A stretch of 62,808 bases of DNA, filler included, from Sluysia triapertura (Eukaryota), in NCBI GenBank assembly GCA_046118255.1. It is 5 parts of 5 records of this genome, joined end to end, with 100 filler letters (N's around TTAATTAATTAA, not from the genome) between each part and the next. Parts side by side here need not be neighbours in the genome. Positions count along the whole stretch, not along the records: positions 51,153 to 62,808 come from JBJNIA010182369.1; 4 more parts are not named here. One strand, given 5' to 3'. A program made the position numbers and the translations under genes. The notes under the pieces are model-generated. The model was not told where the DNA came from. It made no database searches and saw only the letters and a list, made by a program, of their open reading frames with translations. Below are positions 15,849-62,808 of this stretch, piece after piece. How positions within the stretch are numbered: the first letter of the stretch is position 1; each line of letters starts with the position of its first letter.

Positions 15849-15895
15849 GATTATAAGCTGCATTGATTTATATTAAAATTAAATAAATTATGTTT

Positions 15896-15940
<45 letters not shown>

Positions 15941-17049: not shown

Positions 17050-17460
17050 GTCATTTTATTTTTCGACAACTCCAATACTGTTAATCCGAACGGCATTTTT
17101 TCGCATTCATATAATTCATCTCCACATGAGAAAGCTGTTTTACGTTTATCTTTTTCTGTAATTTCTATTTGCCAATAACCACTTTGAAGATCTAAGGTAA
17201 TAAAATATTTAGCGTTTCCTAATTTATCTAACATTTCATCGATTCTTATTTAAATCTCTGAAATCTATACAAAACTTCATAGTTCCGCCTTTCTTCTGAA
17301 CTAGTAGTATGGTGATGAAAATGGAGAAAAGCTTTTTTCATTGTATCTGTCTGATCTTTCACTTCCTGTTGATATGGTTTCTATATGGTTTCTTTTTAAA
17401 TACTTTATCTTCTATTAGTGGAATTTCATGTTTTTTATGACAGAATCTCCAATATCGCAT
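17050..17460 (-). pseudogene. pol: Gypsy reverse transcriptase N-terminal fragment, copy A
   Basis: MLDKLGNAKYFITLDLQSGYWQIEITEKDKRKTAFSCGDELYECEKMPFGLT; truncated before YxDD. Confidence 0.92.
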
Positions 17461-17974
17461 TTATTCCTCGCAGTTGCCCAAGGACTTTATATAATGTTTC
17501 TTTTTGCTGTTCAGTTAAATTTTTATTCTTTATTTGTATTTCTTCATAATCTTCTTCATCTTCTATATTTCTTTGTAATTTAATATTTTTATTTTTTGGT
17601 CTGTCATCTGACACCATGTTTATTTGTGTTTGTAATTTATAATTAACTATTTCGCCTAGTTTTGTACCTGTATATGACCATTTGTTTTCATCAGTATAAT
17701 TTGTTATTCTTATAGGTATGTTTCCATCACAAATTCTACAAATTGAGTCTGCCATCCCTATATTAAATTGTTCTTGATTATTTTTTAAAGCAATAAACAT
17801 TATTTGACCATTTCTTAGACTATTTGTTTTTCCTGGTATTATACATTCTGTTCTTCTAAGTAACCAATTAGGTTCTTCTAATATAACATCATCATTATCA
17901 TCATCATCTATTAATCTATGAGTATAAATTATTTTCTCATTATTTTTAATTTTTAATTTGTCTCCTTTATTTAT

Positions 17975-18285
17975 CCATTTTCGAAAGCATCTTGACAATT
18001 GTTCGGTTTTAATACATTTGATATATCTACTATTGAGGAGTAATTGTGATGACCGCAATACCAGATAAATACAGGTCTTTACACTAGACATTCTCTAACC
18101 AATATTGTAATTAAATTTCCTTCTTGATGAACATTTAGCACTTTTATATCTTTTATTTTGACTCTATCTTCAGTGTCAAATAAAGAAAACTTTCTTCCAA
18201 TTTGGGGTTGGCTACAGTCAAAAGCCTTTATAGAATTGGTTTTATGAATTCCAAATAACGCCAATAAAACTATTATAAATAACAT
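17975..18285 (-). pseudogene. chuvirus-type (class III-like) viral glycoprotein N-terminal fragment, copy A
   Basis: Signal peptide MLFIIVLLALFGIHKTNS then AFDCSQPQ...FSLFDTED...VRECLV*RPVFIWYCGHHNYSSIVD. Confidence 0.65.
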
Positions 18286-19534
18286 ATTATTTATTGAAGT
18301 TCCAAAATGTGGAAATGATTCGCTTGAATTTCCCTTATTTGAAATATTCTTTTCTTCTTTTTTTCTTTAATAATGTTTTTCTATCCACATTGTTTTTCAA
18401 TCAAGGTACTTAATTTCTTATCAACAAAGTTTATGACTTTATCTATCTTTTCTTTGGTTAATAGTGCAGCTTTATTACACTGAAATATTATATAAGCCAT
18501 TATTATTTTAAGTCTTTCCTTGTTGATTCCTGCGTTAATTTGTTTGTTAATGATATTTTTATATTGACCATTATCTATGAAATCGCTTATATCTGTATTT
18601 TTAAACTTTTCTTCCATCATTTTAATTACTTTAGATATTGCATTTCTATATTCCTTTAATTCAGGTAATAATATCTTATATTCATCAAAGTTAGAAAATT
18701 TATTAGATAGTAGCGCGTAAATTATACTTTTAGTATTTAATGTTTCTTCTAAATTTTTATATGTAATTTTCGTTAAATAAAAGGGTTTTCTATGTATTGG
18801 GGTTGGGATTATTGTTTCATCATTTTCTTTGTTTTTTCTAGGTCTACCTGGTTTTCTTTTAAAAGTATATGTTTCTTTGTCTTTAGTTTCTATATGTGGG
18901 TTTTTGTTTAAGTCTACTATATAATCAGGTTTATCTTCAGTGTAATCATCATTATCATTACTAATGTCTATAACTTTATTATTATTATTATTTTAATTAT
19001 AATTATCTTCCATTAATTGTCTTAATAATGAATGTGGGGTTCTATCTAAATCAACATCGTTGTCATCATTTATTAATTCATCTAATTTTCGTAAATTATC
19101 TGAAGGCTTAGTATAGGGAAATCTCATAAAATTCATCGAACTTCATCAATTACTTACACAGATCATTAAAAAAACTACTAAACTCATTCAAAAAACAAAC
19201 ATAATCATTGCACATAATTATCATGAATTACAGCTATTATTATGATTATCAAATAATAACTTTTATAATAAATTTCATATTAACATCAACAATACCATTA
19301 TTTTAAAACATATAATAATTATGTTATTGTTATCATTATTATTTCTTTATCCTTATTATAAATCTTTCTTTCTATTCTTTTGTTTTCCCCAATATTTTTT
19401 TCCAATACTACACACAGTATATTTGATCTCGATTCATACTATTCATCCCAAAAGAAATTTCAGTAACTTCCAAATATAATTGAAATACTCAATCGGAATA
19501 TAATCGTAATTTAGCAAACAGAAATTATACAAAT

Positions 19535-21080: not shown

Positions 21081-22639
21081 GTTTCAAATTTCATCGTTTT
21101 TGTTAAATCGTTATTCTTTAAAGGCTTTAAGCCCAGTTTATTAATTCGTAAATTTAATAGTTATAAAATTAAAATTTGATGATTTTTTCTTAACTAAATT
21201 CTTAAATCTTTTTAATATAAATTTTAAAACAAATAGAAACTATAAAAACTCAAAAGTGCCCCACACTTAGTATATGCCATTATAACAGCGGAAGTCATTG
21301 ATGCTTCCTCATGGTTTCCATTCATCGATGGATAACTGTATTCATTTATATAATCATTAGGTACTAATTTTCTATCATAAAAATATAAATCGACATCAGT
21401 TATAGTAGGGTCATTTGACTTAAGTAATATTCAGGGCATTATTAATAATTATATTTATTTTCATTAATTCTTTCGGATTATTTGTTCTTTCTTTTTGACC
21501 TATTTTTCTTAGTAATTTTCTTGCTTTAGTCTTATATAAACTATCTTCCTTACTTAGAATAGCTAATATTAATTTAATATCATATCCATTTTATATACTT
21601 AATTCTAAATTTAATAAGTCATTTAAATTTTCGTTTAAGTCCTTGCCATTTGTCATATTTGATAAAAATTCCTCAACTTTTTGATCTGTTTCTTTGATTT
21701 TAGTTTCTGGGGTATCTATCTTTTCATTAGCTTATATTATTATTACAGATTCCATTTCTTCTATTTTCATTTCTTCTATTTCCATTTCTTCTGCTTGTAA
21801 TTCTTCATCATCAGTTTCTTTATTATTAATAATATTTTCTATATCTGTTTCTACTTCTTGTCATCACTTAATTCTAAGTTATTTGATTGATTTTCTTCTT
21901 GATTTGATTCTTATTCTGTTGAACTTGATTCTGTTTTCGATTCTTCTTCTATTTCATCATTACTTTCTTTTGATTCATAATCTATTTCTTTGTCAATTAT
22001 CTTATTTGATTCAGATTTCTTTGTCTTTCCTTCCCATTTATCAATTATTTCTTGAATTCTTTTTCTTATATCTTCATTTAAAATCACATCTTATATCTCT
22101 TTTATTTGTTCAATACTTTTTTTCCAAAGGTTGGTTTAATATTTCTCGAATTCTAACTTGAATTTGTTGAATTGTTAATCTACTTTCTTCTTTTCTAGTT
22201 GTTCCTTTCTCTGTTTATCCTCTTGAAATTCCAAATATCTATCGTGCATATAGCTCATAAAGATTTCTTCTTGCTTATTTTTAAATGTATTTTTATCACA
22301 GTCTAATCCAGTGATATAGAATTCTCGTAGAATTGCATTCTTTTCCTCATTGGTAATTAATTTAAGATATTTGTCACATTCTTCATATTTATCATATTTA
22401 TCATATTCTCCTCTTCTTGGTTGTCTTCTACTTCTATTTCTTTCTTCTCGATACTGATATTCGTCTTCATCATCGTATTCGTATCTGTTATTTCCATAAT
22501 CTTTTTCACTTCTATAGTTGCAATTTACTTATTCCTTATTACTCATTATTATCATCATTAAATATTACTTTCCTCTTAGGGCTTTGGTATCATTGTTGAT
22601 ATTGGCCCCTTACCTTAGTAAAATCTTGAGTAAATACAT

Positions 22640-23502
22640 CTTGTCTTAATTTCCTACAATCTCTTGAGTAATGTCCATTTTATTATACTTGTCACAGATT
22701 ATTTCTCCATCTATATTAGTTTGAGTCTTATTATTACTAGGTGGCCATCTTGGTGCTGGTCTTTGTTCATAGTTAGAAGAACCATAATTACTTACTTGGA
22801 ATCCACTATCTCTATTCGTATCACCCCTATAATTGCTTGAATTACATCTGTAATTGTTTGAATTCGAATTACCATTTCCTCTACGTGGGATATTGTACTT
22901 ACTGTCATTATATCTTTCATAATTCGGAGAATTAAATTTATTATCATCATAATTATGTATATTTCTTCTTAATTTCGGACTTTTGTCTCCTTTGTCTTCA
23001 TTATCACTTATATAATCAATATTATTCTTATTCTTTTTATACTTATAGGAACGTTCTATACTTTTTAATTTCTTAATTACTTCCTTAAAAGGTTTTCCTT
23101 CTATTAAGGTGACATATGTTATTAATTCTGGCCGCAACTCAGTTTTTAATTTATCTATTAATGTTATTTCTTTTTATCTTCAGGAATTTTAGCTCTAGCG
23201 ACAAGGCATTTAAAAGCACAAGCGTATTCATAGACAGATTCATTTGGCTTTTGTATCCTAGAGTTTAACATTTTAGTATAATATTTTAATAAAATAATAT
23301 TTTAGTATAATATATAATGTCATCAAGTGCCATTTCTTCAGTAAATGCGTTAGCAAATTCATTCCAAGTCTGTTTATTATTATTACTTATTTCCTTATAA
23401 GTCTGGGTCGTCACTCCAGTTAAATAATTTTGGATTCGTTTTATTTTTCGGCTTCATTTCAACCGTTTACTTCAGCTATGCTTTCATATTCGAATAAGAA
23501 AT
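22640..23502 (-). pseudogene. gag: Gypsy gag with zinc knuckle
   Basis: Retrotransposon gag motifs and a degenerate CCHC knuckle across a frameshift. Confidence 0.8.
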
Positions 23503-25398
23503 TGCTGCAACTTTAAAATTACTAGCTATACGACTCAATAATAACTTGGTTAACTTAAATGATCCTTAATAATTTTAAATAGTCAGTATATTAAATATAT
23601 TTTTGCAGTAATTCTTTCTTATAATATTAATATTTTTATCCAAAATTCAAGTTCTTGACAATCAAAATCAAAATTAAGTCAATAATGTACTATTAAACAA
23701 AAATTCGTAATTTATTATCAATGAAAATCTTTAATAAAAGCTGAGAATCACTAAAATGACAAAAATAATTATAATGTTTATAATAAAATTAAAGACAATA
23801 CAATCTAAGTTGGTCAAAGCAACCAGAAGTGATGCAGCAAACACTAATAATATGTAAAAAAATTAATAATGTTATTTAAATATTTCTGGTTAGTATAACA
23901 CAGAACCAAATACGATTACGAGATTCTTTGATAATGATAATACCTTTCTAATAACAACAATATCTGGAGTTAAAACACTTAATATTTTGATAGATTAAAT
24001 AGTGTAATGTACTAATCGAATATAATATTTTAACAAAATTCTTCTTGAAGTATTCCTCTCAAAATTACCTTTAAAATATCTAAAAATCCAATGTTATCGT
24101 TAATAAGAATAGCGTAGAAAATTTCTTCTAAAATGTCTTTAAAATATGTAAAAATAAAATATTATTGTTACCAAAAAAATTGCGCAGGGATTTTCTATCA
24201 ACTTAACTTAAAAATTTACCAAATTTGACAATATTAAAATTATTCAAATTACAATAAAATCAATTATATCATTTTAGTGAAATAATAAATAAATAAACAA
24301 AACTTAAAAAATTTACCCTGTGCATGGATCTTCTATCATCATTTGTTGACATCGTTGCTGTGTTAATTTACTATTGTGACTGTGATGTAAAAATTTTAAA
24401 ATCTTTACTTTATACTCTCTTGGCATCCAATCAATTCACAATCTCACAACCAAACACTCTCCCACACAAATCATTCAAACCTCTTTGAGGATCAGACCGA
24501 AAATAACGAATATGACAACTAAATGGTACGGTCTGTCAAACTCTATTAGGTACAAAACATAAAAACTTATAGATTCACTTATAGATTCTTCTCTTTCATA
24601 ACAATCATCGCATATTCCATTTATCACATTTGTATCACTCTAAATATAAAAAAGTTAACATTTCATAATTAAAAATTAATATTAAGGCTTTCCTTGCATG
24701 AACTCGGTCAAACCAAACCTTCATCGAGAGGTCTTTTCAAAACAAATTCATACACAGTTTCAAACTTAACATAACATTCTGCGTTCAAAAATTATTCACA
24801 AAAACGTACTTTTTCTCAATTAAGTTAATTAAGATTTTTAATTAATTAATCTATTTTTAGACTTAATTTTATTCTATGTTTAAAGGTTTTATTGATGTTC
24901 TAAAGTTTTTTAGTAGTTTTTTAGGAGTTCTTTCAGATGTTTTCACCTTCACCTCTCTGATTCCTTTTTCTACTTCTTCATGTTAATTATTATTATAATG
25001 AACTTATTTTAATTCTTTTGAACAAAGATTTTATTTCTCAAACATTTTAAAGATTTTATACACTTTATAAGGTTACTTAAGGATCTCAAATGCTTATCGA
25101 TATTCCAAGAATACTTGAAGGTTGCTAGGGTCTTCAATGTTTCAAAAGTTCTACAGTTCAAAAGTACCTTAATACTTCCAAAATTTCTTCAAGTCCATCT
25201 CAAGCTTCCACAAGGTCTCAAACCCTTATATAGGTATTATTCAACTGTTAACATTATTATAGATGTTTTTACTTTCATGATTCTTATTCCAACAATGTTT
25301 ACCATGTTTAACCCATCACTTTGTATCAGTTCTCTCTTTATTTTATAACTCCATATGTTTCTCCCTCATTTCCTGACACATACTTGTAAATCCCTACA
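23503..25398 (+). mobile_element. ~1.9-kb solo-LTR-like element, copy 1
   Basis: TGCTGCAACTTTAAAATT...AATCCCTACA, collinear with 33894-35961 and 44085-46060; no clean TSD; abuts gag. Confidence 0.8.
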
Positions 25399-35796: not shown

Positions 35797-36879
35797 GTAT
35801 TCTTTAATTGTTAACATTATTATAGATGTTTTTATTTTAATGATTCAAATTTCTACAATGTTTATAATGTTCAATCCATCAATTTGTATCAGTTTTCTTT
35901 TCATTTTATAACTCCATAGGTTTCTCCCTCATTTCCTGACATATACTTGTGAATCCCAACAATATGCGTAAGAAAATAATTACTTTATTATTATGATGTT
36001 ATATCTTATACTGATGTCTGAATGATTAAATTTCACTTAGGAATTTAGGTTTGATTTTAACTTCCTGCCCTCTTATTATTGAGGTTTAATTATTGTTGAT
36101 TTTATAATATATTTAAACAGGATCCTAAAAATGATTTCACCACCACATTTAAACAGGTGTGAAAACAGTTTTACAAAGACGACTTATTTTTCGCATTTAA
36201 AACTATAATTTATTTTTTATATTGTAGATATCAGTAAAGGGGGTTTCAAAATGGTACCGGTATTTAAATCTGTTTAGGTAGTTTTGCGTTATGTAAAGAG
36301 AAGTGGTTTGGAAAATCGTTATTTATATTCAATAAGTATGTAATGACTAATATTGTGCTATTGTGTGAATTAATATTGATTTTTATGAACATTAATTGAT
36401 TTTTATAAACATACATTTATTAATGATATTATTAACAATTATGATTAACACATATACATTTGAATTAATATTGATTTTTATGAAAATACATATATTTATT
36501 AATATTGATTTTTCTTTATATCGAGTTAATTTGATTTGTATTATTTAATTTAATTTTTTGGAAATATTTTTGGAATTAATCAATTATTCTTAAGGTAATT
36601 ATTTCTTTTAAAATTAGTATTAAAATTTAAAATTAGCATTAAAATTTAAGATTATTATAAATTATTTTGTAAATTATTTTAAAATCTAAAATTATATATA
36701 TTTCTCAAATAAATATTAGTTTTGTTTTAGTCTGACCAATGTCAGACTACAATAAGTATAAATAAGCGAAATTTTAGTCACAACCTCCATAATTTTTTTG
36801 ACTCGAATAGAATTAGTAACCGAGCTCCTTTTCTTCGACGGAAAGTGTAATTAACACACTATTTAGAATATCATCTTTT

Positions 36880-37426: not shown

Positions 37427-37909
37427 GCTTTAAATTAATCTTTATTCTAACTTTCTCACAAGTATATGAACAAAGAACGTTGATATTAAATATATAAAAT
37501 AATGTTATGAATTAAAGTAAATTAAGTTTAAATTATAGAGTCAATTTATTGATCTAAAGATCTTTGAGAATTTTAATGATAAATTTAAGTTGAATGTTAT
37601 ATGTAGCGAAAATTTAAAATTATAAACAACTAACATTTAATTACAAATTATTATTTACGAAATCTTTCAGTTTATATAATAGTGATTTGTTTTATATCGA
37701 TTCAATTTCCCATAGCTGTGTGACTGAAGGTTGTTAGTATTTGATCGAACTAATGTTTTAAATCAATGAGATTGAAAATAATGTAAATAAAATAAAATAG
37801 TCCCTTGAATTAATATTGTTATTGTAAATGAGATTACGAGCTTATTTATATATTGTTGTCAAGTATTACTCCATTTTAATTGTGTTCTTTAATCTTTAAG
37901 TGAACGTAC

Positions 37910-38064
37910 TGTTAGAATTCATAAAATAGACTGACCGGGGATCGAACCCTGAACCTCTCGTTGCGATGTTTGATGCTCTATCCACTGAGCTATTGGCCCC
38001 TTCTAACGGATTTTAGATTATATTCAATTATATTAAATGGCATCTTAGGCCTGTACCCCCAACA
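37910..38064 (-). mobile_element. ~155-bp tRNA-cassette element, diverged copy 4, TSD GTAC
   Basis: GTAC|TGTTAGAA...CCCCAACA|GTAC. Confidence 0.88.
37927..37999 (-). tRNA. tRNA-Ala(CGC)-derived pseudo-tRNA, diverged
   Basis: A and B boxes retained, TCGCA in the loop region, acceptor stem degraded. Confidence 0.55.
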
Positions 38065-38691
38065 GTACCAGTAGTTTAAAGTTTTTTTGTATAAGATTCT
38101 ATTTCAAATGAAATCGTTTAACAATAAAATTTACTAATTATTCGACAAATTTAAGTGATTTCAAGTCTACACGTAACTTTATAATTTCAGCAAAAATAAA
38201 ATTATTTGAGAACTTAGAATTGGATCAACAAACTACCTCACTATTTTTATTTTTCTGCCAGTAGTAACTCATTACAATTCATTCACTTATGATATGTAAT
38301 GCTTAAAAATCTTTTGTTCTCTTAAATATTAATTACAAACTTTCTTTTAAAAAACTAGTAATTCTGCCTCATGTGCAGGTAGAAAATACACAAATTAAAG
38401 TATCTATTTTAAAACTTTAATCGAAAAATATATTGTTTTTGAATAATCTATTGTTTTACAATATTACAATTCTTGCTTATTAATAAGATTGTGGAGAAAA
38501 ATTCCTCAATTTGACAGACTATCAGTAATAAACTTATAACCCATAGAAAAATTAAATTACCATTTTAATTAAGAATCTTAATTCATGTGGTATTACTTAT
38601 GTCAATAGAATAATTATTTTTTCAGGTTTAAAGATCAATGTAACGACAAAAAATAGAACGTTAGTAGTATAAACAAAAGTAAATATGTATT

Positions 38692-39238
38692 TTATTCATT
38701 TTCATTAAAATTTCCAATAACTTCTTCATAAATAATACAACCTGGTAGTAAACGATAATCGTTGAGAATTCGTAAGTCATTACTTTGAGGTGGTTTATAT
38801 ACAATTCCATTCTTTTCATAAGCAAAAGGAAATCTTAAAACCCATAAACGACCAGGTTCTAACTCAATTCTTTCATTCAATACATCACCAGGACTAAATA
38901 TTGGTACTTGAGATTTTTCCTTGCTACTTGTATCAATATCACTGTTGCTTGCATCGCCAGGTTGTACTCTTGGTTGTAAAAATATACGTAACAAACCATT
39001 ATTGTGAGGCGTAGCAATATATAAACGAGCTAATTGAGCTAGATAATGACTACATTGACATGGAAAATACAATGAAATTGGTCGAGTAAGAAGATCTGCT
39101 ACAGCTTCTTTCACTTGTTGTGCTCCCATACTACCAGTCATCATATGTTCAGGACCAGCCATAAAAAAGCGATGACCAACTGGACATTCCATTTCATAAC
39201 CAAAAAATGCTTTCAGAAAATTACCAGCAGCAAATGCT
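38692..39238 (-). CDS. SMG8: nonsense-mediated decay factor SMG8, C-terminal exon
   Basis: FGYEMECPVGHRFFMAGPE...LYFPC...AQLARLYIATP...QPRVQPG...LWVLRFPFAY matches the SMG8 C-terminus; runs into the gap. Confidence 0.92.
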
Positions 39239-39338
39239 NNNNNNNNNNNNNNNNNNNNNNNNNNNNNNNNNNNNNNNNNNNNTTAATTAATTAANNNNNN
39301 NNNNNNNNNNNNNNNNNNNNNNNNNNNNNNNNNNNNNN
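39239..39338. other. artificial contig linker
   Basis: N-TTAATTAATTAA-N, 100 bp. Confidence 0.97.
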
Positions 39339-39520
39339 TCTGTTCACGTAATTGGTTTAATAATTCTACAAAGATTTTCATACCGTCTTATTGTTGGTTT
39401 TTCTGTATTTTATTTATTTGGTTTATTATTTTTAATGCAAATACCATTTGTCGGATTTCAGTCTATCAAAACTAATGAACACATGTCAGCAGCTTGTGCA
39501 TTTGTTATTTTGCAAGGTTA
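39339..39520 (+). CDS. STT3: oligosaccharyltransferase STT3 exon or captured fragment
   Basis: VHVIGLIILQRFSYRLIVGFSVFYLFGLLFLMQIPFVGFQSIKTNEHMSAACAFVILQ matches STT3 LHVFVLLLMQRYS...MQIPFVGFQPIRTSEHMAA. Confidence 0.85.
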
Positions 39521-39659
39521 TTATGTTTACACTATATTCAATAAAAGTATAAATAAAGTGCTATCCTGGGAAACATTTTACATTTTATCAATATTTATTA
39601 TAATTGATCCTGTTATTTTATTACATTTTTCCGGTTAACAAATCTTTATTTATTAAATT

Positions 39660-44084: not shown

Positions 44085-46060
44085 TGTTGGGATTGCCCAA
44101 CTGTGGATCTGGAGACGAATGAAAACATATAAATGAAGGAAAAATGGATATACATTGATGAATTGAACATGATAAACATTGTTGGAATACGAATCGTGAA
44201 AGTGAAAACGTCATAATAGTGTTAAGAGTTTCAAAGACCTATATGGAAGGTTGTAAATGACTTGGAAAACCTTTGAAGGTATTAGAATACCTTTGATCTT
44301 GCGGACATTGAGATAATCTCAGACTTCATTAACCTTTAAGCATTTTTGAAACTTGATATGTATCTAAGATCTTCGAGTGATATTACATAATGTATAAAAT
44401 CTTTATAATATTTGAGAAATAAAATCATGGTTTAAAATAATAAAGATGGGTTTAATATAGTAATAATTAGCATGAACAAAAAAAGGAAACAGAGAGGTGA
44501 AGGTGAAAACATCCGGAGCCTCCTAAATGCCTTATTAACTACTAAATAACTTTAGAACCTTAATAAAACCTATAAACATAGAATAAGATTAAGTCTAAAA
44601 ATAGATTAATTAATTAAAATCTTAATTAACTTAATTAAGAAAAAATACGTTTTCGTGAATATCTTTTGAATGTGGAATGCTTTGTTGAATTTGAAACTGT
44701 GTATGTATTTGTTTTGAAAAGACATCTCGATGAAGATATGGTTTGACCAATTTCATGAAAGGAAAGCCTGAATATTGAGCAAGGTCAAATTTTAATTAAT
44801 TTTTAATTATGGAATGTCAAATTTTTTATACTTAGAGTAATACAAATGTAATGAATAAAATATGAAATGATTTCTATTACGAGGAGAATCTATAAGTGAG
44901 TTTGAAATGTTTGTAGAATGGTTCGTTTGAGAACAAGAAGCTTAAAATATTATTCATTAGAAAATTGGGTGTGAAAAATTAATCAAATCCTAAAAAGTGA
45001 AATTAAATACATTTTTTTATGTACGTTAACAATATTGTTGATTGTTATTTTAATGTGAGAAGTAATTTAAGTAAAAATAGATTGAGTAAAGTAAAAAAGA
45101 AATGATGACTGATAATAAATCAGAAATCTATTTTTTGTACTTAATGAAGTTTGACAGACCGTACCATGTAATTGTCGAAGATGTTATTGTCGGTTTGATT
45201 CTCAAAGAGGTTTGGATGATTTGTGTGAGATAGTGCTTGATTGTGACACTGGGAATTGACTGGATGATGAGAGAGTATAAAATAAAAATTTCTAAATTTT
45301 TACAACACAATTACACAATCACAGGACACAAGAAGATTTGCAGAATTAAGAAGATCCATGCTCTTGGTAAGGATGTTTTATTATTTTACTATTTTATTCT
45401 AATTTATTATCGATGTAATATTGTTATAATATTCCGATTATTATTATCAATATTATTTCATCTGTTTTTAAGGGAATTTCAAATCATTTGGTGAGAGACT
45501 CCTTTTGCAATTTATTTTTTTGGGATTTTACAATTAGTTTTGTGAGAGACACCCTACACATTTTACTTTTCAAATATCTTTTTTTATTTATTACTATTAA
45601 ATTTTAGGAAGAATCTCGGACCAAATTTTTGTTATAATATTTAATTATAATTATGTTTGGTTAGATGTCTGGAAAATTTTGGGCAGTATCAATATTCTTT
45701 ACTTTCTAGATATTGATATTTTTAATGTCTGTTGGGTCACTCCTGGTTTCTTTAGTTATATTGTAGTGTCCTTAATATTATTATTAATCTAGACTTTTTA
45801 ACCAGTTTGAATATTGTTTAGTGGAGATTTATAATAATAATGAATAATATTTTGCTTTTTGTTTAATAGTAAATTATTGTGTTATTTTGATTTGATTTCA
45901 AAGAGTTTAATTTTTGGAATGAATAATTACTGATATTAAATAAGAGAATTTTTGAAAATTTAGATTTGATCTAGTGAATACTTAAATAATTGAGATCCTA
46001 TTTAAGCTAATTAAGTTGATATTTATTTTAAATAATTTAATAATTTTCAAAGACGCAACA
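44085..46060 (-). mobile_element. ~2-kb solo-LTR-like element, TSD ATTC
   Basis: ATTC|TGTTGGGATT...GACGCAACA|ATTC; reverse-complement homolog of 33894-35961. Confidence 0.9.
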
Positions 46061-51052: not shown

Positions 51053-51152
51053 NNNNNNNNNNNNNNNNNNNNNNNNNNNNNNNNNNNNNNNNNNNNTTAA
51101 TTAATTAANNNNNNNNNNNNNNNNNNNNNNNNNNNNNNNNNNNNNNNNNNNN
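51053..51152. other. artificial contig linker
   Basis: N-TTAATTAATTAA-N, 100 bp. Confidence 0.97.
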
Positions 51153-52900
51153 AGATCTAGAAACTGTGACCGAAGAGAATAGACGTCTTAAAACAATAGT
51201 TAAAGAATTATTAATCAAACTTAAACGACAGAAAATTAATAATGAAGCAAATCGTGAAGAAACCGATGAAGGAATGTTAGGTAATTTATTATTCACAAAG
51301 GATGTTGGTAGACACACTAAAGAAAATGTTGTTTTTGATAGTAATGCTAGTAATAAAGAATATATAAAAGATACTAAAAAGGACATTAGCAAATTTCAGG
51401 AAATAAAAACTGAATTAAGAATGATCAGTAATAAAAATAAAGAAGATGGAAATCAGAACCTGTATTAACTGAAAAATGTGATATTAAGTTACAGAAAAGA
51501 TTAATAAATACATTGTGCCTTGGTGACATAGTAAATAAGCAACACCCTTCTTTTGAAAAAGAAATAATATAAGAAAAGTCTACAAAATGTGGTAGAAGTT
51601 GTTTTGTGAAAAATAGTATTTCATTATTAAAATATATTTTACCATTAATAACTATTTTAATAGTTCTTGGAGAAAATCACCAAAAATTTAGACTTAGAGA
51701 TGCTCATAGTAAAGTTTGTTCAACTTCAACAATAGTCATATTTATGCTTTCTTATTTATTCGAATTTACAACTTCGAACTCTTTTTTTGCGAAACCTACA
51801 ATAATAAATTAACAAATTTCACTTGGGACAATGAGAAGTACAACTGCATGTGGTCCTGAAAACAGGTCGACTATAGTGGATCTTAACAAAAATCCACACA
51901 TTGAAACAAATACAATTAAAAGACGGCCTGGTCGCCCAAGAAAAAAATGAAGAAAATGATATGCATCTATTTATCTTGCATATTGAGCACAAACTATTTG
52001 TCGAGAAATACTTCACCTAAAATAATTTTGATATCTACCCAGAAAGACATTTACTCTAAAATATTAATAGATAAAATTAAGTTATTTTCTGTTCAAATAA
52101 AATGTTGTATAATGGATTAATGTGAAATTGAAATACGGGCAAGTAAACAAGATTTCTACTGGTTTACATCTTGCATTGATCTTGCTGAATATCAATTAAT
52201 TAGTGTAACAATAACTATAGAACTGGAATATGATTCCCAAAGTGACTCAAAGACTATTTTGATGCGGTATTATAAAATAAAGACTAAACCGTTTACTTTT
52301 CAACAATCATTAACACATGATAGCAAGACTGAATCCCAACAATCGTTGACATCAATTGAATATCTACCGTTATCTGGGAAATATTGTGCGTATCCATAAT
52401 CCATTATGTGGTAATACATTAATAATCGCATATGAATTGCCTGTTGGGTTACGTTATGGAATAATATTACCTGATGATTCTATTCGCTTGTATCGTATAC
52501 CAAATAATAAACTCGTGTTTATTAAATTTTGGATATTAAGAAAACCAGAAATACATGATTCAAAAGGATTTTGGCCAATTGTAGATAAGTACCAAAATGA
52601 TTTCGATACGAAATCAGAGAAAATGATTAGAATTAATAACAATTTTACGAATGTACCTTATGATAGGAACAGAAATATAGGTTCGAATACTACCAGCATA
52701 AGTATGAATATCAGTAAGGAGAATAACGAATGTTCAATTATAAAAGAATCCAACAACAACTTCTTCATAACTTTAAATTATATTTTAATAATAATTTCCT
52801 TACTAACATTAATAATTAATTTTATTATTTATTTATTAGGCACAGAGGCCACTTTCTCATATAAGTTGTAATATATTGCATTGATGACCACATGTAATGG
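51153..52900 (+). mobile_element. heavily deleted, divergent relative of the Gypsy family (copy C)
   Basis: IVDLNKNPHIETNTIKRRPGRPRKNEEND at ~51865 matches the AT-hook ORF of copies A/B; ORF 52356 ends ISMN...NFFI+TM like ORF 57667. Confidence 0.65.
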
Positions 52901-55734
52901 TCATTCATCTTGGGTCATGTGTGATATTAAAATCATAAAAAATTAATTTTAATTTTGTAAAGATAGTAAGGATCATGCATATGACTATTTGTAATGGTTT
53001 ACCATTCATTTCGAGTCATACGCAAACTAAAATATCACTTAACTTTTATTTAGGATTAGGATTTTTTAATTTTTTATATTTTTAATTTACAATAGTACTC
53101 ATTTTATAACCGTATTTCAAAAACGGTGTTCCTTAAATCTTTTTATCTTTTCTCTATGAAATTTTACCTGGATTTTGCGACCGGAATAAAATCGGCGACT
53201 TTATGTTAATTAATGAATGAAATCAAGTAAGAAATAAAAATATATTAGTTATACAATTATACAAAATGATTTTATATAGGAGATAATAAAGGTTATATAA
53301 TAAATGTATAAATAATTTAATAAAGATTATAAATATAATCTTTTATTAATTAATTACCTCCCTCTTAAAAAGTGGGTTGTTAAAAAATTTTACAATCTAT
53401 TAAAATTGAGGAAAACTTATGAAAAACAAACTAACGGTTACAACAAATGGATTATAGATAAAATTTCCAAAAAATTAAATATCGTCCAAAATTCGAATGA
53501 ACTTCAAATAAAAGTTCAAATTAATCGCCGAAGAAAATTGATAAAATTTCAGAAGTTCCTTGAAGATCGTGGTACAAAATCTTTTGATTATTATGTTGTG
53601 TGTTTTTTGTTAAATGTTATGTGCCTTTTATAGTAAATGAGTGATAACTTTGACTGATATTTATTTGAAGAGTTAATTTGTTTTAAAGAATTTAAGAAAT
53701 TAAAAATATAACGATTTTAAATAAATAATAATAATAACAAGAATACCAACAAACTATTAAAATTAAAATCAATAATTTTATTTTAAACTATTAGAATTAC
53801 AATAAAAATTTTATTTTTAGATTTTACAATCAATTTTTAGATTCTACTTAGTAAAAATCAATAATTTATATTTACAGACCTATTTTAGATTAAATAGGTA
53901 AACTATTATAAATTTTAGTTAGATTCTATATTTACACCTATACATAAACTATTTTTAGATTATAAATATAAACTTTAGATATTGACATAACTTTCCCTTA
54001 CGGAAAAATTAGTCTCTAATTTTAAAATAGTGTGGTATTATTATTATTAGTCAAATTCAGAATCACTGTCTAATAAAGTGATCACCGGAATATCATCACC
54101 ACATCCAAAAAATTCGTTTTCAGTTAAATTTTTACCCAGAACACCATATTCATCATTGTCACTGTTATCACTATCGTCTAGATCGACTGGCGAATCCAGT
54201 TTTCTTTTCTTGATAACTGTATCTGACGCCGGATGTTTCGATGTTACCATTTCTGTTTTTGCCGGTTCTCGGTCTTCTGTTATCTTTTCATCTTGTAATT
54301 GTGGATCTTCCTTATAAAATTTCTTGTTATTTAAATTTTTTGATGTTACTTTTATGACTTTTGTGAGGAGGTGTAAAAGGAATAGGCCTATCAAAGTATG
54401 GAAGTTTTGTGCAGATTATGGCTTTGTTAGAAGATGTAGATGGAATGAGAGAAAGATGTGAAGGAGAAAAGGGTGAATGAGAAGAAAAAGAAGGCAAAAT
54501 TGGAATAGAAGTAATTTTTGAATTGTCGATCTATGGCAGAAAGAATCTGTTCTTATTTTGTATCAAGTCAAATAATGATATTAAATCCTTAGCGTGCTCT
54601 AAACATGAAACACGCGGTGGGAAGAGATTTAACAATTTCAAAACCTTCCGCGCCCTTAAGATTGGATTAAATGACTTGTGCGAAACTAAATTTGTACATG
54701 TGAGATTAATGATTCCCCTTAATCAGCCGTATTGAATTTTAAATGTATTAATAATTATGTCGGGGAAGAATGCGACTAATATTTTATCGTATTGTGATGT
54801 AAGCCAATGTTGGCGGATGTCAGCTGTCTTTCGCATTGATAAGGTTGTCTTCCCTTAACCAAAGTTCTGCCGCTAGAAAGTTCCTAATTCTTATACGTGG
54901 TCTTAGTAATTCATCCGAATGGAAAAGTTTGTGATATTGTATTAAACAAACTCTTATTGGCTGGTAATTTTCCTTAAAATCTAGTGCCAACTGTACTGTT
55001 ACGAAGACAAGTTTATTTTTGTCTAACATGGATATATGTGGGGTATGAGTAAATGTTATTCTTTCTTCTCACTTATAAAGATTATCTTTGTCCTCGGCGT
55101 ATAATAAAGGGTGTTTAGTCATATCTAGAGGTTTATCAATGTTCAAAAAGAAAACAGCGAAGGTGGTAGACAGTTCTTCCGCTTCAATGTATACTTTGAA
55201 ATTTGATGTCAGATTTGTTATCACTAAGGAAGAATAGCCTTGTATTCGTGAATGTAGAGGGACTTTGTTCACGAATAATGATATTTTGAGGGAACCCCTA
55301 GCTGCGGCAATAAGCACCTACTGTCATCTTTAAGGTATCCCTGCAAGGTATTTATAATTAAAGGAGATTGTATTTATTGTATATGAAATAAATGTGTGAT
55401 AAAATTTTGGTCCAATTCATTCTTTAAAATGTTTGTTGTTAGGTTTGATTTTAAAAATACATAAGGGGTATCATATTTGCCACAAAAGCTATCTATTCCA
55501 TTGTAAAAAGAGGGAATATTGTTTGTGATGTATGCATGTGGAAGAGTGGTTGGAGATATCTGAATGAAAGAACATGTTTTGTAAAAAAGTAAATACAAAG
55601 TTAGATATTTTAATCGTTAGTTTGTTTAGTTTGTTATTAATATTACATTTATTTGATTATTAATTAACCTATAAATTTTAGGAATCATAAAAAGAAAATA
55701 AATAAAAATGAAAATAAAATATTAAGTACGTTTC

Positions 55735-56193
55735 TTTTTGAAGAACGGATTATTTTTAATTCTTAAATTGCTTTTATATGATCCCATCTTTTTATAGAAT
55801 CATCTCAATTGTCTCCTGCGACGGTTGTGTTTTTGTGAACGTGTCAGTCCAGGAGGAAAATTTGGTTTAAGTATACTTATTTCCTGTTTATTGTTAAATT
55901 GCTTATAATAGGTGGGTTGAATAATTTCTATATCTTCTATTTGAATATTTTCTGTATTACTATTTAGTGAAATATCTTAAAGTGCATATGAATGGCGGAA
56001 TTTTACCTTACGAAATACCTGTATTTCCTTTACTATTGTTCTACATAATGAACAATTCAAATACTTAGTTAAAGTAAAATGAAAAAGATTTATGATGCAT
56101 TTAAAATGGAATTTACGCATGCATGGAAATGTTTTTACATAATGTTTTTTTATGAATTGACTTTTGACAAATTGAACATTTGATGCAATACAT
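55735..56193 (-). pseudogene. RING-H2-type zinc finger ORF
   Basis: CSICQKSIHKK/HYVKTFPCMRKFHFKCIINLFHFTLTKYLNCSLCR across a 1-nt frameshift in an A7 run. Confidence 0.75.
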
Positions 56194-56459
56194 TATCTAA
56201 AATATGAATGAAAAATTAAAAAATAAAAATATACTTAGTAAATAAAATTTATTATTATATTAAATAATAAATTATTATTATATTAATTAAATAAAGTTTA
56301 TGTTCCTATTTAATGTACAAAGCTAAGTAAAACTGCGAAAAGACCATTAATAATTTTAAGTTAGGTGACCGGTCAGACAGAAGGTAACCGTCAATATCGA
56401 TCACTCGTAACTTATTCATTTTTTATTCATTTCTATACTTTGATTGAACAAGTTAATCT

Positions 56460-58400
56460 ACGCGTGTTAATTACATAAATTTTTATGATTTCTGTCGTAA
56501 GAGTGACTGCAAGTAACGCAAAAAGTATGAATGTTATAAGACATAAATATATGTTGATTTTATTTGAATTGGCTTGTCGCTATTGCTGATTATTTTTTAT
56601 TTATTGATTTTACCATTTCATACTTATTATACTTATTTAATGTCTTCAGTAGTTTCATTAATGATTGGTACTACTAAATTAAATTGTCGTCCAGGCCAAA
56701 TGCGGTTCATTCTAAATGTTTCATTAATGAAAAATATCAATATGTATATAAATGGGAATGTCAATTTTGCTTGGTAATCTATTCTAATTGTTAACTTAGC
56801 TGGTATTAACTCTAAAGAGGCTTTATTGGTACGATAATTTATGGCAATTGAATTATTTAATAACGTGTTGGTCATTTTAACTGAGTTATTTCTGTCAATT
56901 ATTGCTGTAAAGGAGCAATTCAACCATTGTCTACTAAAATAGTCAAAAAATAAATATGGTTTGGTTTTAATCCAATGATACTGTGTATATATTAATCTAT
57001 TTATTAGCGCTATTGTTATCTTAACTTTATATAATTGAGATTCGAATAATTCTTCACAATTTATGATCCACTTTTTGATTGTTTTATAAGGAATTGTAGT
57101 ACATTGATCTTGTAGACAGCATCATATAGATAAGTGAATTAATTTTCCATTTATATTTTTAACAATAGCTATAATTTCATCGGTCTTAACTTGAATAGAT
57201 AATTGCATATCATTATGAAACATTTTCTTATTTAATTTATTTGTTATAATCTTAGTCGAATAAACGGTGGTTATACACGTCAAACAAATACATAGTAAAA
57301 CTGATGACATTTGAATTCCATTGTAATGTGTCTGAAATCTTAAATCATATTCATATAATGGAGATGGCATTATTGGTGGTAATGGTGGTCCTTGAGGGGC
57401 ATAAAATCGATTGATTATTGGTACTGAATAATGATTATCCTCGTCGTTATTAGATGAAAAATTTGAATATCTGCACTTATTCATTATAAAAAACATGATC
57501 ATTAAGAATGTTATAATTAAAGCAATAATAAATAAGGTTGCTGCTATTATTAGAATTACCAATGATGGATCCTTTCTTAATGAGTCGATAATTGTTAATT
57601 CTTTTCTGTTACCTTGTATAGCATAATGTAGTTGTTTAATTATTTTGGTTTGCTTTATAAATATTACTATGTGTCTATCTTCCGAAAGCAAAAAATCCTT
57701 ACAAATTGTAACGGGATATTGCGTATTTTAGGTATTACATGTTGATGGGTTTTCCATATACTAAAATTGAATCTTGAGGGATTAATACATATATATTGTG
57801 CTTTTATATTCGTACTGGTCATTTTAATTTGTACTTCAGTATCATAGTTGTAAAAATCGAAATATTGTGATCTATATACCTTTTGTGATCCATTTACTAT
57901 TGATACCAATGATAATATAGTGAGTAACATTATGTCTCGACGAATATTATTAGTTCTTAAAATTCTGTTACAAATAATAATATAAATACTAAATAGCAAG
58001 TATATTATGGTAAAAATTAGAAGTGCCAATATAAAGAAATTCTTTGTACTATCTTTTTTCTTTTCCCTTATTGTATTTGTACTTACTTCTTTATCATTCA
58101 TACTTATTTCTTTATTTGTTGATCTTTCCAGATTTCTTGTTATTGGTGTTAATGCTATTGAAGTTTCCTTGTATTATTGTTCATTAAGTATGTCCGTAAA
58201 ATTTATTGTTACCAATTTACTGTCATAAAATGAAAATCCGATTAATGTAGTAAAATAAATTGAATGTTCACATTGATAGATATCATATATTAACAAAGGT
58301 TTCTTTATTACTAATGGTTTCAAATAGATACAATAAATTTCTAAATTATAATTGGGTATTGGGTTTCTATCGTCTACCTCAACTGTCCAAAATCGATTTA
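56460..58400 (-). pseudogene. tandem type-I membrane glycoprotein polyprotein
   Basis: TM, internal signal MLLTILSLVSIVNG, TM with Tyr/Pro tail, internal signal MSSVLLCICLTCITTVYS, N-glycosylation sequons (NCS, NNS, NET), terminal TM. Confidence 0.55.
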
Positions 58401-58537
58401 AAATATTTTAAGAAAGATTGCTTGTTTAGTATTAGTATAACTTGTTAAGTTTGCTGGATAATTAGGTACCATGGTTGTGTATTGCCGTCATCGTTATCTG
58501 TTCCTTTACCCGATGTTGAAGAGACTGTGGTATCCAA

Positions 58538-59160
58538 CTAATCAAGATTTTCCCAATTTGGAGTTGGCGATGGTGTTATGATTGGATTTAATGCAGTAAT
58601 TTGATAATTTTGTGGTAAAGGTTGTAGTGCTCTTGGCATTGGAGGTAAAACTAATTGTGGTAATACTTCATGTGTTCCTAAAGGTATTTTAAGTAATCCT
58701 AATCTTCCACGAATTACTATGTTTTCTAGTTTATTTATTACATCCATTCCTAATATAATATCATATGGGCATCTTTCCCAAGCTAATATTTTTACAAACA
58801 GGTCTACATCTAAGATTGTTAATTGACATTGTAATATTCCATTAAATAAAATATTTGAACCATCCACTTCAAATAATCGTTTTCCGGCTTGTTGTAACAT
58901 AGTAATTTCTAAAGCAGTTAGTATATTGTAATTGATAATAGTGTTATTTGAACCCGTATTTATAACTGCTCGTATCCATCGTTGATTGAATTTAATACTT
59001 TGAAACAGGTGATTTTGTATATTAAAAGAGGTTATCATATTTATTGCACTTATTGGTTTATTGATCATTAAATCCGTACTTGTTGGTTTAGACGGTGTAC
59101 TTAATAATTTAGATGGTTTATTTCTATCTTTAATCCTTGACTTTACTGTTAATATACTTT
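58538..59160 (-). CDS. retropepsin-like aspartic protease located 3' of integrase (catalytic D to N)
   Basis: IRAVINTGSNNTII...YDIILGMDVI match the A-L-I-DTGS and DIILGMD retropepsin motifs. Confidence 0.85.
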
Positions 59161-59670
59161 TCGTACTTTCCTATTTCTTAAGTTATTTTCGTCATTAGGT
59201 GCTAATTTACATCGATTTACGTGTATGACGAAAGTCTCTGCATTCATATCATTAGGTTTCTTTATATATATAAATTAGTAGAAGTTGTTTTCATTATTTC
59301 ATATGGTCCCTTAAACGGTTTATGCAATTTCGGAGAATATCCTGGTTTTGATATTGGGTAATCTACTAGTACTTTATCTCCTACTTTAAAATTATGATCA
59401 TTTGTTTTTTTATCATAGTTATCTTTATAAGTTTCCTGTGTATAACGTATCTGTAACCCAGCGCGTTTCCACGCATCTTGTAAATTTTCTCTCATAATAG
59501 TTACATATTCAGGAGTTTCTAGATATTGAGATGACGGTGGAATCCAGTCTAAATCTACTGGCATATTTGAGTGTCTACCGTACATTAGATAAAATGGTGT
59601 AAAATTAGTAGCAGGATGTACTGAACTTCTGTAAGCAAATAAACATGGAGCGATATAAAGATCCCAATAC
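59160..59670 (-). pseudogene. pol: Gypsy integrase C-terminal part with GPY/F module
   Basis: WDLYIAPCLFAYRSSVHPATNFTPFYLMYGR...FKVGDKVLV...FKGPYEI...VIHVNRCK. Confidence 0.92.
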
Positions 59671-60465
59671 AAATGGCATCTTTTCACATTCATATAATTC
59701 ATTTCCACATGAAAAAGCTGTCTTATGCTTGTCCTTTTCTGCAATTTCTATTTGCCAATAGCCGCTTTGAAGATTTAAAGTCGGAAAATATTTTGCTTTT
59801 CCTAATTTATCTAACATTTCATTGATTCTTGGTAACGGAAATACATCTTTTCTTGTTATCTTATTTAGTTCTCTAAAATCAATACAAAATCTCATAGTTC
59901 CATCTTTTTTCTTGACTAATAATACTGGTGATGAGAGTGGAGAAAAGCTTGGTCTAATTACTCCAGCCTTTTTCATTGTGTCTATTTGATCTTTCATTTC
60001 TTGTTGATTGCATAATGGAATTCTATAAGGTTTCTTTCTTATTACTTTATCTTCTATTAATGGGATTTCGTGTTTTATTATAACGGAATCTCCAATATCA
60101 TATTTATTTCTTGCTATTGCCCAAAGATATCTGTAGATGACTTTGTATAACGTTTCTTTTTGTTGTTTAGTTAAATTCTTATTTTTTATTTGTATTTCTT
60201 CATAATCTTCTTCATCTTCAATATCTCTTTGAAGTTTTATATTCTTATCCTTTGGTTTATCATTTGATACCATATTTATTTGTGTTTGTAATTTATAATT
60301 AACTATTTCTCCCAACTTTGTTCCTGCGTATAATCATTTATTTTCATCAGTATAATTTATTATTCTTGTACATTTCCATCTTGAATTCTGCAAATTGAGT
60401 CAGCAATACCTATGTTTAATTTTTTGATTATTTTTTGAAGCGATAAACATTATTGGACCATTTCT
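59671..60465 (-). pseudogene. pol: Gypsy pre-RT linker and RT N-terminus
   Basis: KKPYRIP...GVIRPSFSPLSSPVLLVKKKDGTMRFCIDFRELN...FPLPRI...SGYWQI...KTAF...MPF. Confidence 0.95.
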
Positions 60466-60489
60466 CAGTTTGTCTCCTTTATTTAGGCT

Positions 60490-60826
60490 TTTGTATCCAA
60501 TTTCGAAAGCATTTCTACAATTATTTGGTAATATTTTAAATGGTTTCTGTACGTATGAAATATCAATAATTGAAGAATACCATATAACCACTGACCTTTT
60601 AACCAAACATTCCCTGACCAAAGTTGTGACCAAATTCCCGTCTTGGTATACATTGAATACTTTCATATCTTTTATTTTGACTCTATTTGGTCTTGATTCC
60701 AGACAATCTTCAGTGTCTAATAGAGAAAATTTTCTTCCAATTTGAGGTTGGCTACAATAAAAAAGCCTTAATAGCATTAGTCTTATGAATTCCAAATAAT
60801 GCCAATAAAACAATTATAAATAACAT
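60490..60826 (-). pseudogene. chuvirus-type glycoprotein N-terminal fragment, copy B
   Basis: CSQPQIGRKFSLLDTEDC...VYQ...VRECLVKRSVVIWY-SSII...ILPNNCRNAFEIG. Confidence 0.65.
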
Positions 60827-62808
60827 TATTTATTGAAGTTCCAAATTGTGAGAATGATCCATTTGAATTTTCTTTATTATTAATTAGTCTAGATATCATA
60901 TTAAGTGGTTCATTTAAAGTATTCTTTTCTTCTTTTTCTTTGTCTTTGATAATATTTTTCCATCCTCCTAGTTTATTTATCAGAGTACTTAATTTCTTAT
61001 CAACAAAGTTTATGATTTTATCTATCTTTTCTTTAGTTAAAAGTGTAGCTTTATTACATTGAAATATTACATAAGCCATTATTATTTTAAGTCTTTCCTT
61101 ACTTATTCCTGCGTTAATCTGTTTATTTATTATAGTTTTATACTGCCCATTATCTATATAATCGCTTATATCTGTATTTTTATACTTTTCCATTATTTTG
61201 ATTATCTTATTTAATGAACTCTTGTATTCTTTTAATTCTGGTAACAAAGTTAGAAAACTTATTTGACAATAATGTATAAATTATAGTTTTAGTACTTAAA
61301 GTCTCATCAATATTTTTATAAGCAATTTTTGTTAAATCAATGGGTCTTCTATGTATTGGGTTTGAAATTATTGTTTCATCATCGTTATCTTTAACTTTTT
61401 TAGGTCTACCTGGCCTTCTTTTGAAAGTATTTGTTTTTTAATCTTCCGTTTCTATATGCGAGTTTTTATTTAAATCGATTATTTAATCAGGTTTTTCTTC
61501 AATGTCATCTTCATTATCATTAGTAATATCTATTATTTTACTATCGTTATAATTATCTTTATTTTCTTTATAATTATCATCCATTAATTCTCTTAGTAAT
61601 GAACGTGGGGTTCTGTCTAAATCAACATTATTATCATCATTTATTAATTCATCTAATTTTCTTAAATCATCGCAAGGTTTAGTGTATGCCATTATAACTG
61701 CGGAAGTCATTGATGCTTCCTTACGGTTTCCATTCATTGATGGATAACCGTAATCATTTATATAATCATTAGGTAATAATTTTCTATCATAAAATATAAA
61801 TCAACATCAGTAATATCAGAGTCATTTGATTTAAGTAATTCTATAATATCTTTTGCAATTGAAGTAACTGGGAGTTCCATAGTAATATTCAAAACATTAT
61901 TAATAATTATACCTATTTTCATTAATTCTTTGTGGTTATCTTTTTTTCATTTTTGCCCTATTTTTCTTAGTAATTTTCTTGCTTTAGTCTTATATGAACT
62001 ATCTTCTTTACTTAAAATAGCTAATACTAATTTAATCTCATGTCCATTTTGTAAGCTCAATTCTGAATTCAATAAGTCATTCAAATTTTCATTTAAATCC
62101 TTACCATGAGTCATATTGGATAAAAATTCTTCGATTTTTTGATCAATTCCTGGGGTATCTATTTTATCATTTGTAGCTGTTATTATTGATTCCATTTCTT
62201 CTGTTTCCATCTTTTCTGTGACACTGTTATAAGTATCTTCTTCCTCTATGTCAATTTTTTCTGCTTGTATTTCTTCATCATCAGTTTCTTTATTATTAAT
62301 AATATTTTCTGTCTGTTTCGACTTCTTTGTCATCACTAAATTCATTATTTGATTGTTTTTCTTCTTGATTTAATTCTTCTTCAGTTGAACTCGATTCTAT
62401 ATTCGATTCTTCATCTGTTGGAATTGATTCTATATTAGATTCCTCTTCTGTTTCATCATTACTTTCTTTTGATTCAAAATCTGCTAACTTGTTTGATTCT
62501 GTTTTCTTTGTCTTTCCTTCCCATTTGTCAATTAATTCTTGAATTATTTTTCTTTTAACTTCATTTGATATCACTTCCTTTATATCCTTTATTTGTTCGA
62601 TGCTTTCTCCTAAAGGTTGATCTAATAATTCCCGAATTCTCACCTGGATTGGTTGAATTGTTCATCTGTTTTCTTCTTTTTCTCGTTGTTCCTTTCTCTG
62701 TTTGTCTTTCTGAAATTCCAAATATCTGTCGTGCATATAACTCATAAAGATTTCTTCTTCTTGTTTATTCTTAAATCTATTTTTATCGCAGTCCAGTCCA
62801 GTGATATA

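Follow-up and report, generated by a model that had tools for sequence, protein, structure and literature searches.

Remnants of a chuvirus-type glycoprotein upstream of Ty3/gypsy pol in defective, most probably Burro-type, retroelement copies of Sluysia triapertura

The planarian Burro elements carry an env gene in frame between a BCL2 domain and the protease, which was called the first such case (PMC6431247), and the GAG-ENV-POL order with an env of the HSV/gB type has been described for errantiviruses of flatworms, nematodes, and bryozoans (PMC13524379). A captured RNA-virus glycoprotein is also located before pol in nematode metaviruses (Sacco et al, 2022, as cited in PMC13524379). A preliminary description of the locus reported here had started from the premise that capture of such an env would be unexpected outside the BEL/Pao elements; this premise is not supported, as GAG-ENV-POL elements of the Ty3/gypsy type have been published (PMC6431247; PMC13524379). 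The words Burro and BCL do not occur in the main text of PMC13524379, and we infer that Burro and the GAG-ENV-POL errantivirus group of that survey are the same. The survey text accessible to us deals with intact elements only, from which truncated ENV had been removed, and is silent on short remnants. A literature search outside the subscription papers (such as Sacco 2022 and Grohme 2018) returned no account of such elements keeping a short N-terminal part of env, and the portions of PMC12440569, PMC13238120, and PMC8532177 at hand added nothing on env.

The DNA stretch analysed from S. triapertura, hereafter the window, is 62,808 nucleotides long with a G+C content of ~24%. It is made up of five contigs separated by artificial linkers at 12420–12519, 26531–26630, 39239–39338, and 51053–51152, each linker being 44 N, a 12-mer that carries a stop in every frame and another 44 N, and the order across the linkers does not establish linkage in the genome. 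A host exon of SMG8 was found at 38692–39237 on the minus strand by Pfam search (E 1.5e-28) and is eukaryotic; it had a single match, at 39% identity, in a word-indexed protein search. By eye, 39339–39638 and 10399–10764, both on the plus strand, are what we take to be oligosaccharyltransferase STT3-like and PDZ-like host exon pieces, respectively, and the host of the element would be an animal. Two large retroelement fragments, copy A in the contig 12520–26530 and copy B in the contig starting at 51153, are treated as separate insertions and not as a tandem pair because they lie in different contigs.

Both copies contain, on the minus strand and where the preliminary description had placed it, an N-terminal remnant of an env gene (G) of the HSV-gB/chuvirus type (PF24664). 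The remnant of copy B spans ~120 codons at 60469..60826, as located by tblastn, a profile of relatives and the A/B alignment, and that of copy A lies at 17930..18285, with an approximate 3′ end. Copy A stays in a single frame from 18285, interrupted by one stop, and has lost 21, 15, and 10 nt relative to copy B, and copy B has a frameshift near 60764, an 18-nt loss near 60576 and is cut at 60469. When the stops were replaced by X, copy A matched the Monjiviricetes_fusion profile PF24664 with E values of 4.2e-6 to 4.7e-7 over profile positions 5–122 of 653; against the cut-off of 27 bits, the longer reading of copy A scored above it (28.6) and the shorter below it (25.5). Thus, the similarity to a viral glycoprotein profile, on which the original assignment had been made to depend, was found with copy A. 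Copy B alone gave no match to PF24664 in the Pfam profile search; it matched the relative P0001 in tblastn (E 4e-20) and the profile of 13 relatives at positions 17–120 of 171 (E 2.7e-28). The G fragment had no match in a word-indexed protein search.

A signal peptide followed by a cysteine motif had been proposed for these fragments. Each copy does begin with a hydrophobic segment followed by the cysteine pattern, but the full motif is a composite that occurs in neither copy, as 21 nt with the second cysteine are missing from A and 18 nt with the CG-H motif are missing from B. Furthermore, the hydrophobic segment of the relatives lies inside a polyprotein (residue ~130 to 1345) and thus does not stand at a free N-terminus as a signal peptide would. 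The remnant stops before the sixth conserved cysteine of the relatives' N-terminal part, and it contains no second hydrophobic (anchor) segment of the kind present in P0001, P0004, and P0008. With ~120 of the ~650 profile positions left, the ectodomain is incomplete and the anchor is absent, and the copies were therefore filed as defective derivatives and not as intact errantiviruses. The remnants presumably yield no working protein. The earlier suggestion of a retained short secreted fragment appears unlikely, given the loss of conserved cysteines and the frameshifts in both copies and the polyprotein-internal position of the hydrophobic segment, although the active form of the family may have one.

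The relatives of G were collected by a phmmer search of 1.84 billion representatives, which gave 20 hits; 16 of these contained PF24664 and the other four were unrelated repeat proteins. Eight of the 16 were near full length, and in six of these eight G was followed by a retropepsin, in one case at E 0.002. In two of the eight, P0004 and P0008, and in the cluster member P0021, the same frame continued from G through RT, RNase H and integrase, which bears out the suggestion that env precedes pol in the master element, as G also precedes RT in both window copies. Env is in frame within a single polyprotein in P0004, P0008, P0010, and P0021, whereas the window copies are frameshifted. CCHC knuckles were found upstream of G in P0003, P0004, and P0010, an AT-hook motif before G in P0008, P0010, P0013, and P0021, and P0001 has a Bcl-2 match upstream of G (E 0.00096), as has P0009 at a weak E 0.2. 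The order in these relatives is gag knuckle(s), AT-hook and/or BCL2-like domain, hydrophobic segment, a class III fusogen of ~600 residues with its anchor, retropepsin(s), linker, RT, RNase H, integrase and, in some of them, additional proteases; the knuckle-G-PR-RT-RH-IN order is complete in P0004. The PR-RT-RH-IN profile of the relatives had Ty3 Gag-Pol as its best PDB match. Several retropepsins may occur in one polyprotein, with six catalytic-type motifs in the 4844-residue P0021 and five in P0010, and in the set of P0021, P0008, P0010, P0009, and P0013 some of them lie behind the integrase, as in copy B. In P0017, the N-terminal part of G is fused to an FAD-oxidase domain, probably as a chimera of gene calling or assembly, and P0004, although clearly a retroelement polyprotein, bears the name of a bacterial metagenome bin, probably through contamination.

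The fold was assessed on an AlphaFold model of P0001 (mean pLDDT 62). Its best match in BFVD was the chuvirus-type G of Tacheng tick virus 4 (E 5e-35), and in the PDB it matched herpesvirus gB (E 7e-12) with TM-scores of only ~0.2. The G family is thus a class III fusogen of the chuvirus/gB type as judged from the modelled relative and not from the fragment, and the chuvirus-type identity proposed earlier is upheld by this model together with the PF24664 matches of copy A and of the phmmer hits. No locus was recovered when P0001 was searched in viral contigs.

The region upstream of env was compared between the copies. Directly upstream of env in copy B is a probable BCL2-like domain (60945..61253, minus strand), 81% identical to that of copy A, preceded by an acidic/coiled-coil region and an AT-hook (RPGRP) segment at 61300..62808 (minus strand), which runs past the end of the window and was recognized by self-match to copy A at 21267–22318 and 18700–19115. 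The AT-hook segment and probable BCL2-like domain of copy A cover 18381..19115 on the minus strand (AlphaFold and Foldseek). The helical domain of copy A was modelled by AlphaFold as all helical with a mean pLDDT of 58; in Foldseek almost all rows, including the top ones, were of the BCL-2 family at E 0.67 or worse, and its alignment with Bcl-xL (VIA-align Z 7.0, rmsd 3.9, 107 aligned) was tied with those of unrelated helical proteins. This ORF had no match in Pfam or in the word-indexed protein search and none usable in the ESM Atlas, and against PDB sequences it gave unrelated weak matches only. On these models, we tentatively consider the C-terminal half of what had been called the AT-hook ORF to be probably a BCL2-like domain, as in Burro. 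The acidic/coiled-coil region of copy A (21267..22528, minus strand) is 88% identical to that of copy B over aligned columns. It is preceded by a gag-like remnant at 22649..23502 (minus strand), weakly similar to the gag part of P0003 (E 0.003), with an end that by eye resembles a zinc knuckle and is degenerate and frameshifted; Pfam gave no gag match for this remnant. Copy A is also interrupted at 19116–21266 by a 2.15-kb insertion on the opposite, plus strand, the core of which (~19890–19975) weakly resembles the first part of the C-terminal domain of RIG-I (Pfam E 0.002; PDB E 0.023). This insertion may possibly be a fragment of an antiviral sensor gene within the retroelement.

Downstream of env, both copies continue into a pre-RT linker and the N-terminal half of a Ty3/gypsy RT on the minus strand. 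In copy B these lie at 59666..60468, with an RVT_1 match (E 1.8e-10, profile 1–119 of 205) and similarity to P0008 1314–1543; in copy A they lie at 17083..17890, are frameshifted and match P0008 1253–1533 in three pieces. The linker holds the position of the dUTPase-like domain of Burro and aligns to the same place in the relatives, and Pfam gave no match for it. In copy B, the RT half is directly followed by a C-terminal part of the integrase (59203..59668, minus strand) matching the relatives; compared with the relatives, ~1.6–1.7 kb have been deleted between the two, and at 59668, 32 contigs of run X1 continue into other sequence. The RT similarity stops within ~10 nt of the same codon in both copies (17083 and 59666). 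A second shared joint at this RT end was considered and rejected; seven letters are common to the two copies, but the sequences beyond them differ, and the joint in B is accounted for by a short microhomology. Downstream of the integrase, copy B has a retropepsin-like domain at 58541..59170 (minus strand) with a degenerate catalytic motif (gag-asp_proteas E 5.3e-5, below cut-off), which matches the post-integrase proteases of P0008 and P0021. The ORF list further gave membrane-type ORFs at 54800..58407 (minus strand) with no Pfam names; they are covered by many X1 contigs, one of them recurs in a third fragment of the window, and they are probably accessory ORFs of the element. A RING-finger-like ORF was seen at 55980–56192 on the minus strand (zf-RING_2 E 3e-4, below cut-off).

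The RT of copy B was closest to the pols that bear G, with 56–59% identity over 124 residues and 66% for a partial one, and the metagenome loci reached 54% or less. In an RT tree of 118 columns, which held 67 of the 80 control loci, omitted matches shorter than 100 residues and contained no BEL RT, copy B grouped with the G-bearing pols at a node with support 93/65 (not starred). G was present in none of the 80 metagenome loci from the pol alignment. From this proximity, G and RT most likely belong to one lineage of elements. The linker ORF of copy A found no locus in metagenome contigs, nor did the RT ORF of copy B in viral contigs.

The gag remnant of copy A abuts an LTR-like repeat of 1896 nt with TG...CA ends (23503..25398, minus strand), which is a candidate LTR lacking matching 4-nt flanks. 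No primer-binding site was seen beside it, and no second copy of it was found downstream of A or B within their contigs. Solo copies of this repeat, LTRs of ~2 kb that have TG...CA ends and are flanked by 4-nt target-site duplications, are located at 33894–35961 (minus strand) and 44085–46060 (plus strand), and partial LTR copies near 28885–29293 and 32992–33849. A third fragment, copy C (51800..52900, plus strand), has the AT-hook segment followed almost directly by a 3′ accessory ORF (tblastn 51873–51944, E 4e-7, and 52103–52300, E 4.5e-5) and is without BCL2, env and pol. A repeat of ~160 nt occurs at 5124–5282, 30638–30798, 35636–35797, and 37907–38069, one copy of it inside a solo LTR; three copies score as tRNA genes, and the repeat is probably a tRNA-derived SINE.

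The junction between G and the linker had been described as the same in both copies, with a switch to pol-like sequence at NKGDKL. Pol-type sequence does follow G in both, but the motif fits G better than pol, and the DNA alignment showed that the 138 nt directly after the NKGDK codons in A are absent from B. The joints are therefore nested and not identical. Fourteen residues of copy A, NKGDKL plus eight, stood in register with 12 G relatives (p 0.013) and not with the tails of pre-RT proteases (p 0.51, three tails only). This test was ungapped with the register set by copy B's own ORF, and p 0.013 is that of the best of nine registers; the 14-residue peptide is likewise the best of seven overlapping peptides, NKGDKL alone giving p 0.20 and a 20-residue version p 0.07. 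A gapped local-alignment test of NKGDKL as G or as pol was not significant either way. These comparisons moderately support that G probably extends ~13 codons further in A than in B; if the motif is G, the G remnant would end near 17930 in A and at 60469 in B, and the deletion in B would enclose that in A. By comparison with P0004, P0008, and P0021, 2.1–6.0 kb are missing between G residue ~110–125 and the pre-RT linker, a piece that in the relatives holds the remainder of G with its anchor as well as the pre-RT protease(s). G and linker are in frame at both joints. In a rough simulation with arbitrary size assumptions, independent deletions placed both joints this close in 0.1–0.5% of cases. 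The identity at the joint was 54 of 60 against a range of 42–55; as there is no clear rise, recent exchange between the copies is not shown. The G joint was not among the 12 listed of ~3050 X1 loose ends, and a full-length G of this exact family was seen neither in the window nor among those 12.

Copies A and B are 85–88% identical over aligned columns, with 38 indels over ~2860 aligned nt; of the indels of at least 4 nt, 11 of 21 are multiples of three (p 0.056). The dN/dS for G was 0.06–0.07 (82–93 codons, dS 1.1–1.2), and 34 of 50 changes fell in third positions (p 6e-7). The corresponding dN/dS values were 0.085 for linker and RT, 0.17 for BCL2/AT-hook and 0.19 for the acidic region, and dS between the copies was ~0.9–1.2 in the G remnant and RT half. 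The mostly synonymous changes indicate that A and B came from different active lineages in which G was kept as strongly as RT, and that decay followed later. Both copies are dead, with frameshifts and indels, no membrane anchor and half an RT. Large private deletions are also found at the RT-IN boundary in B and in copy C. The family is highly repeated in run X1, where 16110 contigs fall on a 9.8-kb stretch, a depth that is not a copy number.

When set beside the available parts of the Burro description, with which the comparison is by description only, the window copies resemble Burro and GYPSM1 in having env between gag and pol (in frame as read from the relatives), and resemble Burro in a BCL2-like domain, here only probable, directly before env, in a long acidic/coiled-coil region after gag, in a linker between protease and RT, and in an env related to mononegavirus fusion glycoproteins (PMC6431247). 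They differ from Burro in being deleted and frameshifted, with a candidate LTR of 1.9–2.1 kb, and in having a retropepsin and membrane-type ORFs behind the integrase, which those parts do not mention; furthermore, a single protease is described there whereas the G-bearing relatives have several retropepsins (PMC6431247). A total length above 30 kb marks the Burro elements, and the contigs here are 12–14 kb long. The window showed no MATH, SUMO-like, BIR, or ankyrin domain. The gene order, env class and Ty3/gypsy pol are shared with the Schmidtea errantivirus “Platyhelminthes_C1a” of PMC13524379. The features that mark a GAG-ENV-POL errantivirus were found as a Ty3/gypsy pol with RT before integrase (RVT_1 and then the integrase part of copy B), a class III ENV (PF24664 in copy A) and the order gag-env-pol, for which the gag remnant is weak (E 0.003). 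By eye, the spacing of the cysteines and of VYQE...EC...CG-H-S follows six Schmidtea rows of supplementary file 2, and the fragment is closer to the Schmidtea ENV rows than to the bryozoan and nematode rows displayed there (PMC13524379). The nematode metaviruses share the position of a gB-type ENV before POL (Sacco et al, 2022, through the parts of PMC13524379 at hand), but the nematode C1 ENV rows were, by eye, much less like the fragment (PMC13524379). The mosquito BEL/Pao elements carry the same G family, as far as the accessible text describes them, but belong to another retrotransposon superfamily, whereas here G precedes a Ty3/gypsy pol (PMC7642597). The most fitting name for the copies is that of defective derivatives of a GAG-ENV-POL element of the Burro type.

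Copy A reads, in order, LTR-like repeat, gag-like remnant, acidic region, AT-hook, helical domain, G remnant, linker and half RT, and copy B adds the integrase end, the retropepsin and further ORFs. We consider it highly probable that the env remnant at 60490–60826 is the scar of a deletion, left in a dead copy of a large Ty3/gypsy LTR retrotransposon of the Burro/GAG-ENV-POL errantivirus type, whose parent had a full-length G. In such a parent, the first hydrophobic segment would act as an internal signal sequence threading G into the ER, the anchor would return the chain to the cytosol, and signal peptidase with the element's proteases would release Gag, G and Pol; the resulting enveloped particles could move from cell to cell. 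A and B are two diverged members in which purifying selection acted on the coding sequence, including G, before 2.1–6.0 kb and many smaller pieces were lost, and their parents would have had a full-length G. The closeness of the joints calls for a common cause, most likely either an old deletion derivative that was mobilised in trans and went on recombining with active elements or a hot spot of deletion. Recombination of deletion derivatives with active partners is a process of plant LTR elements. The proposal that a single shared deletion was amplified in trans is possible in itself, but the joints differ by 138 nt and dS has reached ~0.9–1.2 under purifying selection in G and RT; a non-autonomous deletion lineage would lose this signal unless it recombined with active partners, and therefore simple trans amplification fits poorly.

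It is unlikely, although it fits several of the observations, that the short G belonged to an active family in which one in-frame deletion removed the fusogen body and the pre-RT protease(s), selection then retaining the first ~125 residues, whether as spacer, as membrane tether or as interference factor, with the post-integrase protease taking over. Nested joints at dS ~1, both in frame, a dN/dS of the remnant as low as that of RT and the presence of the post-integrase retropepsin would suit this idea, but parents with a full-length G predict an equally low dN/dS, the remnant ends before the sixth conserved cysteine, and Pol, if in frame behind a single hydrophobic segment with no anchor to follow, should end up in the ER lumen. 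Moreover, a short G joined to RT was found in none of the 16 PF24664 relatives, and P0008 and P0021, which have post-integrase proteases, retain a full G and pre-RT proteases. Quite improbable is splicing of the element RNA, by which conserved splice sites in two active lineages would remove the G body and proteases before reverse transcription, giving the same joint independently; it would reconcile shared joints with purifying selection, and the coincident RT ends and an AAG-G exon-junction-like word in the shared motif agree with it, but this word is common in A-rich DNA, the register test places the motif inside G and not at the joint, and A and B differ beyond the RT ends.

The make-up of the window from five contigs with artificial linkers, the 16110 X1 contigs of this very repetitive family and the lack of any listed piece spanning the G joint could together suggest assembly errors at short microhomologies. 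This we regard as still less probable than splicing, as nested joints occur in two different contigs with no N at either and the many small indels have the pattern of decayed copies. At the bottom of the scale, and scarcely credible, is the chance insertion of a BEL/Pao-borne or free chuvirus G beside an unrelated gypsy RT; BEL/Pao capture of this type of G is on record (PMC7642597, and cited in PMC13524379, in the parts of both at hand), but the closest G relatives are fused to a Ty3/gypsy pol in the same order and the same proteins hold the closest RTs. A BEL/Pao element with chuvirus G was rejected, G lying upstream of a Ty3/gypsy-matching pol and not downstream of a BEL/Pao pol, as was a non-retroviral chuvirus endogenous viral element, since retroelement domains flank G in both copies.

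The architecture is thus already known, and the window is a new, decayed example of it, most likely adding one more genome to those with Burro-type gag-env-pol elements. Should the short-G family be true, it would represent an envelope-to-intracellular transition in a gag-env-pol polyprotein, with an env stub having a function of its own. If the short G were active or the joints spliced, they would show how a single gag-env-pol polyprotein drops or bypasses its envelope, a question that the accessible parts of the Burro and errantivirus papers do not address (PMC6431247; PMC13524379). The strong purifying selection on the class III env (dN/dS ~0.07) gives indirect support for a working fusogen in these elements.
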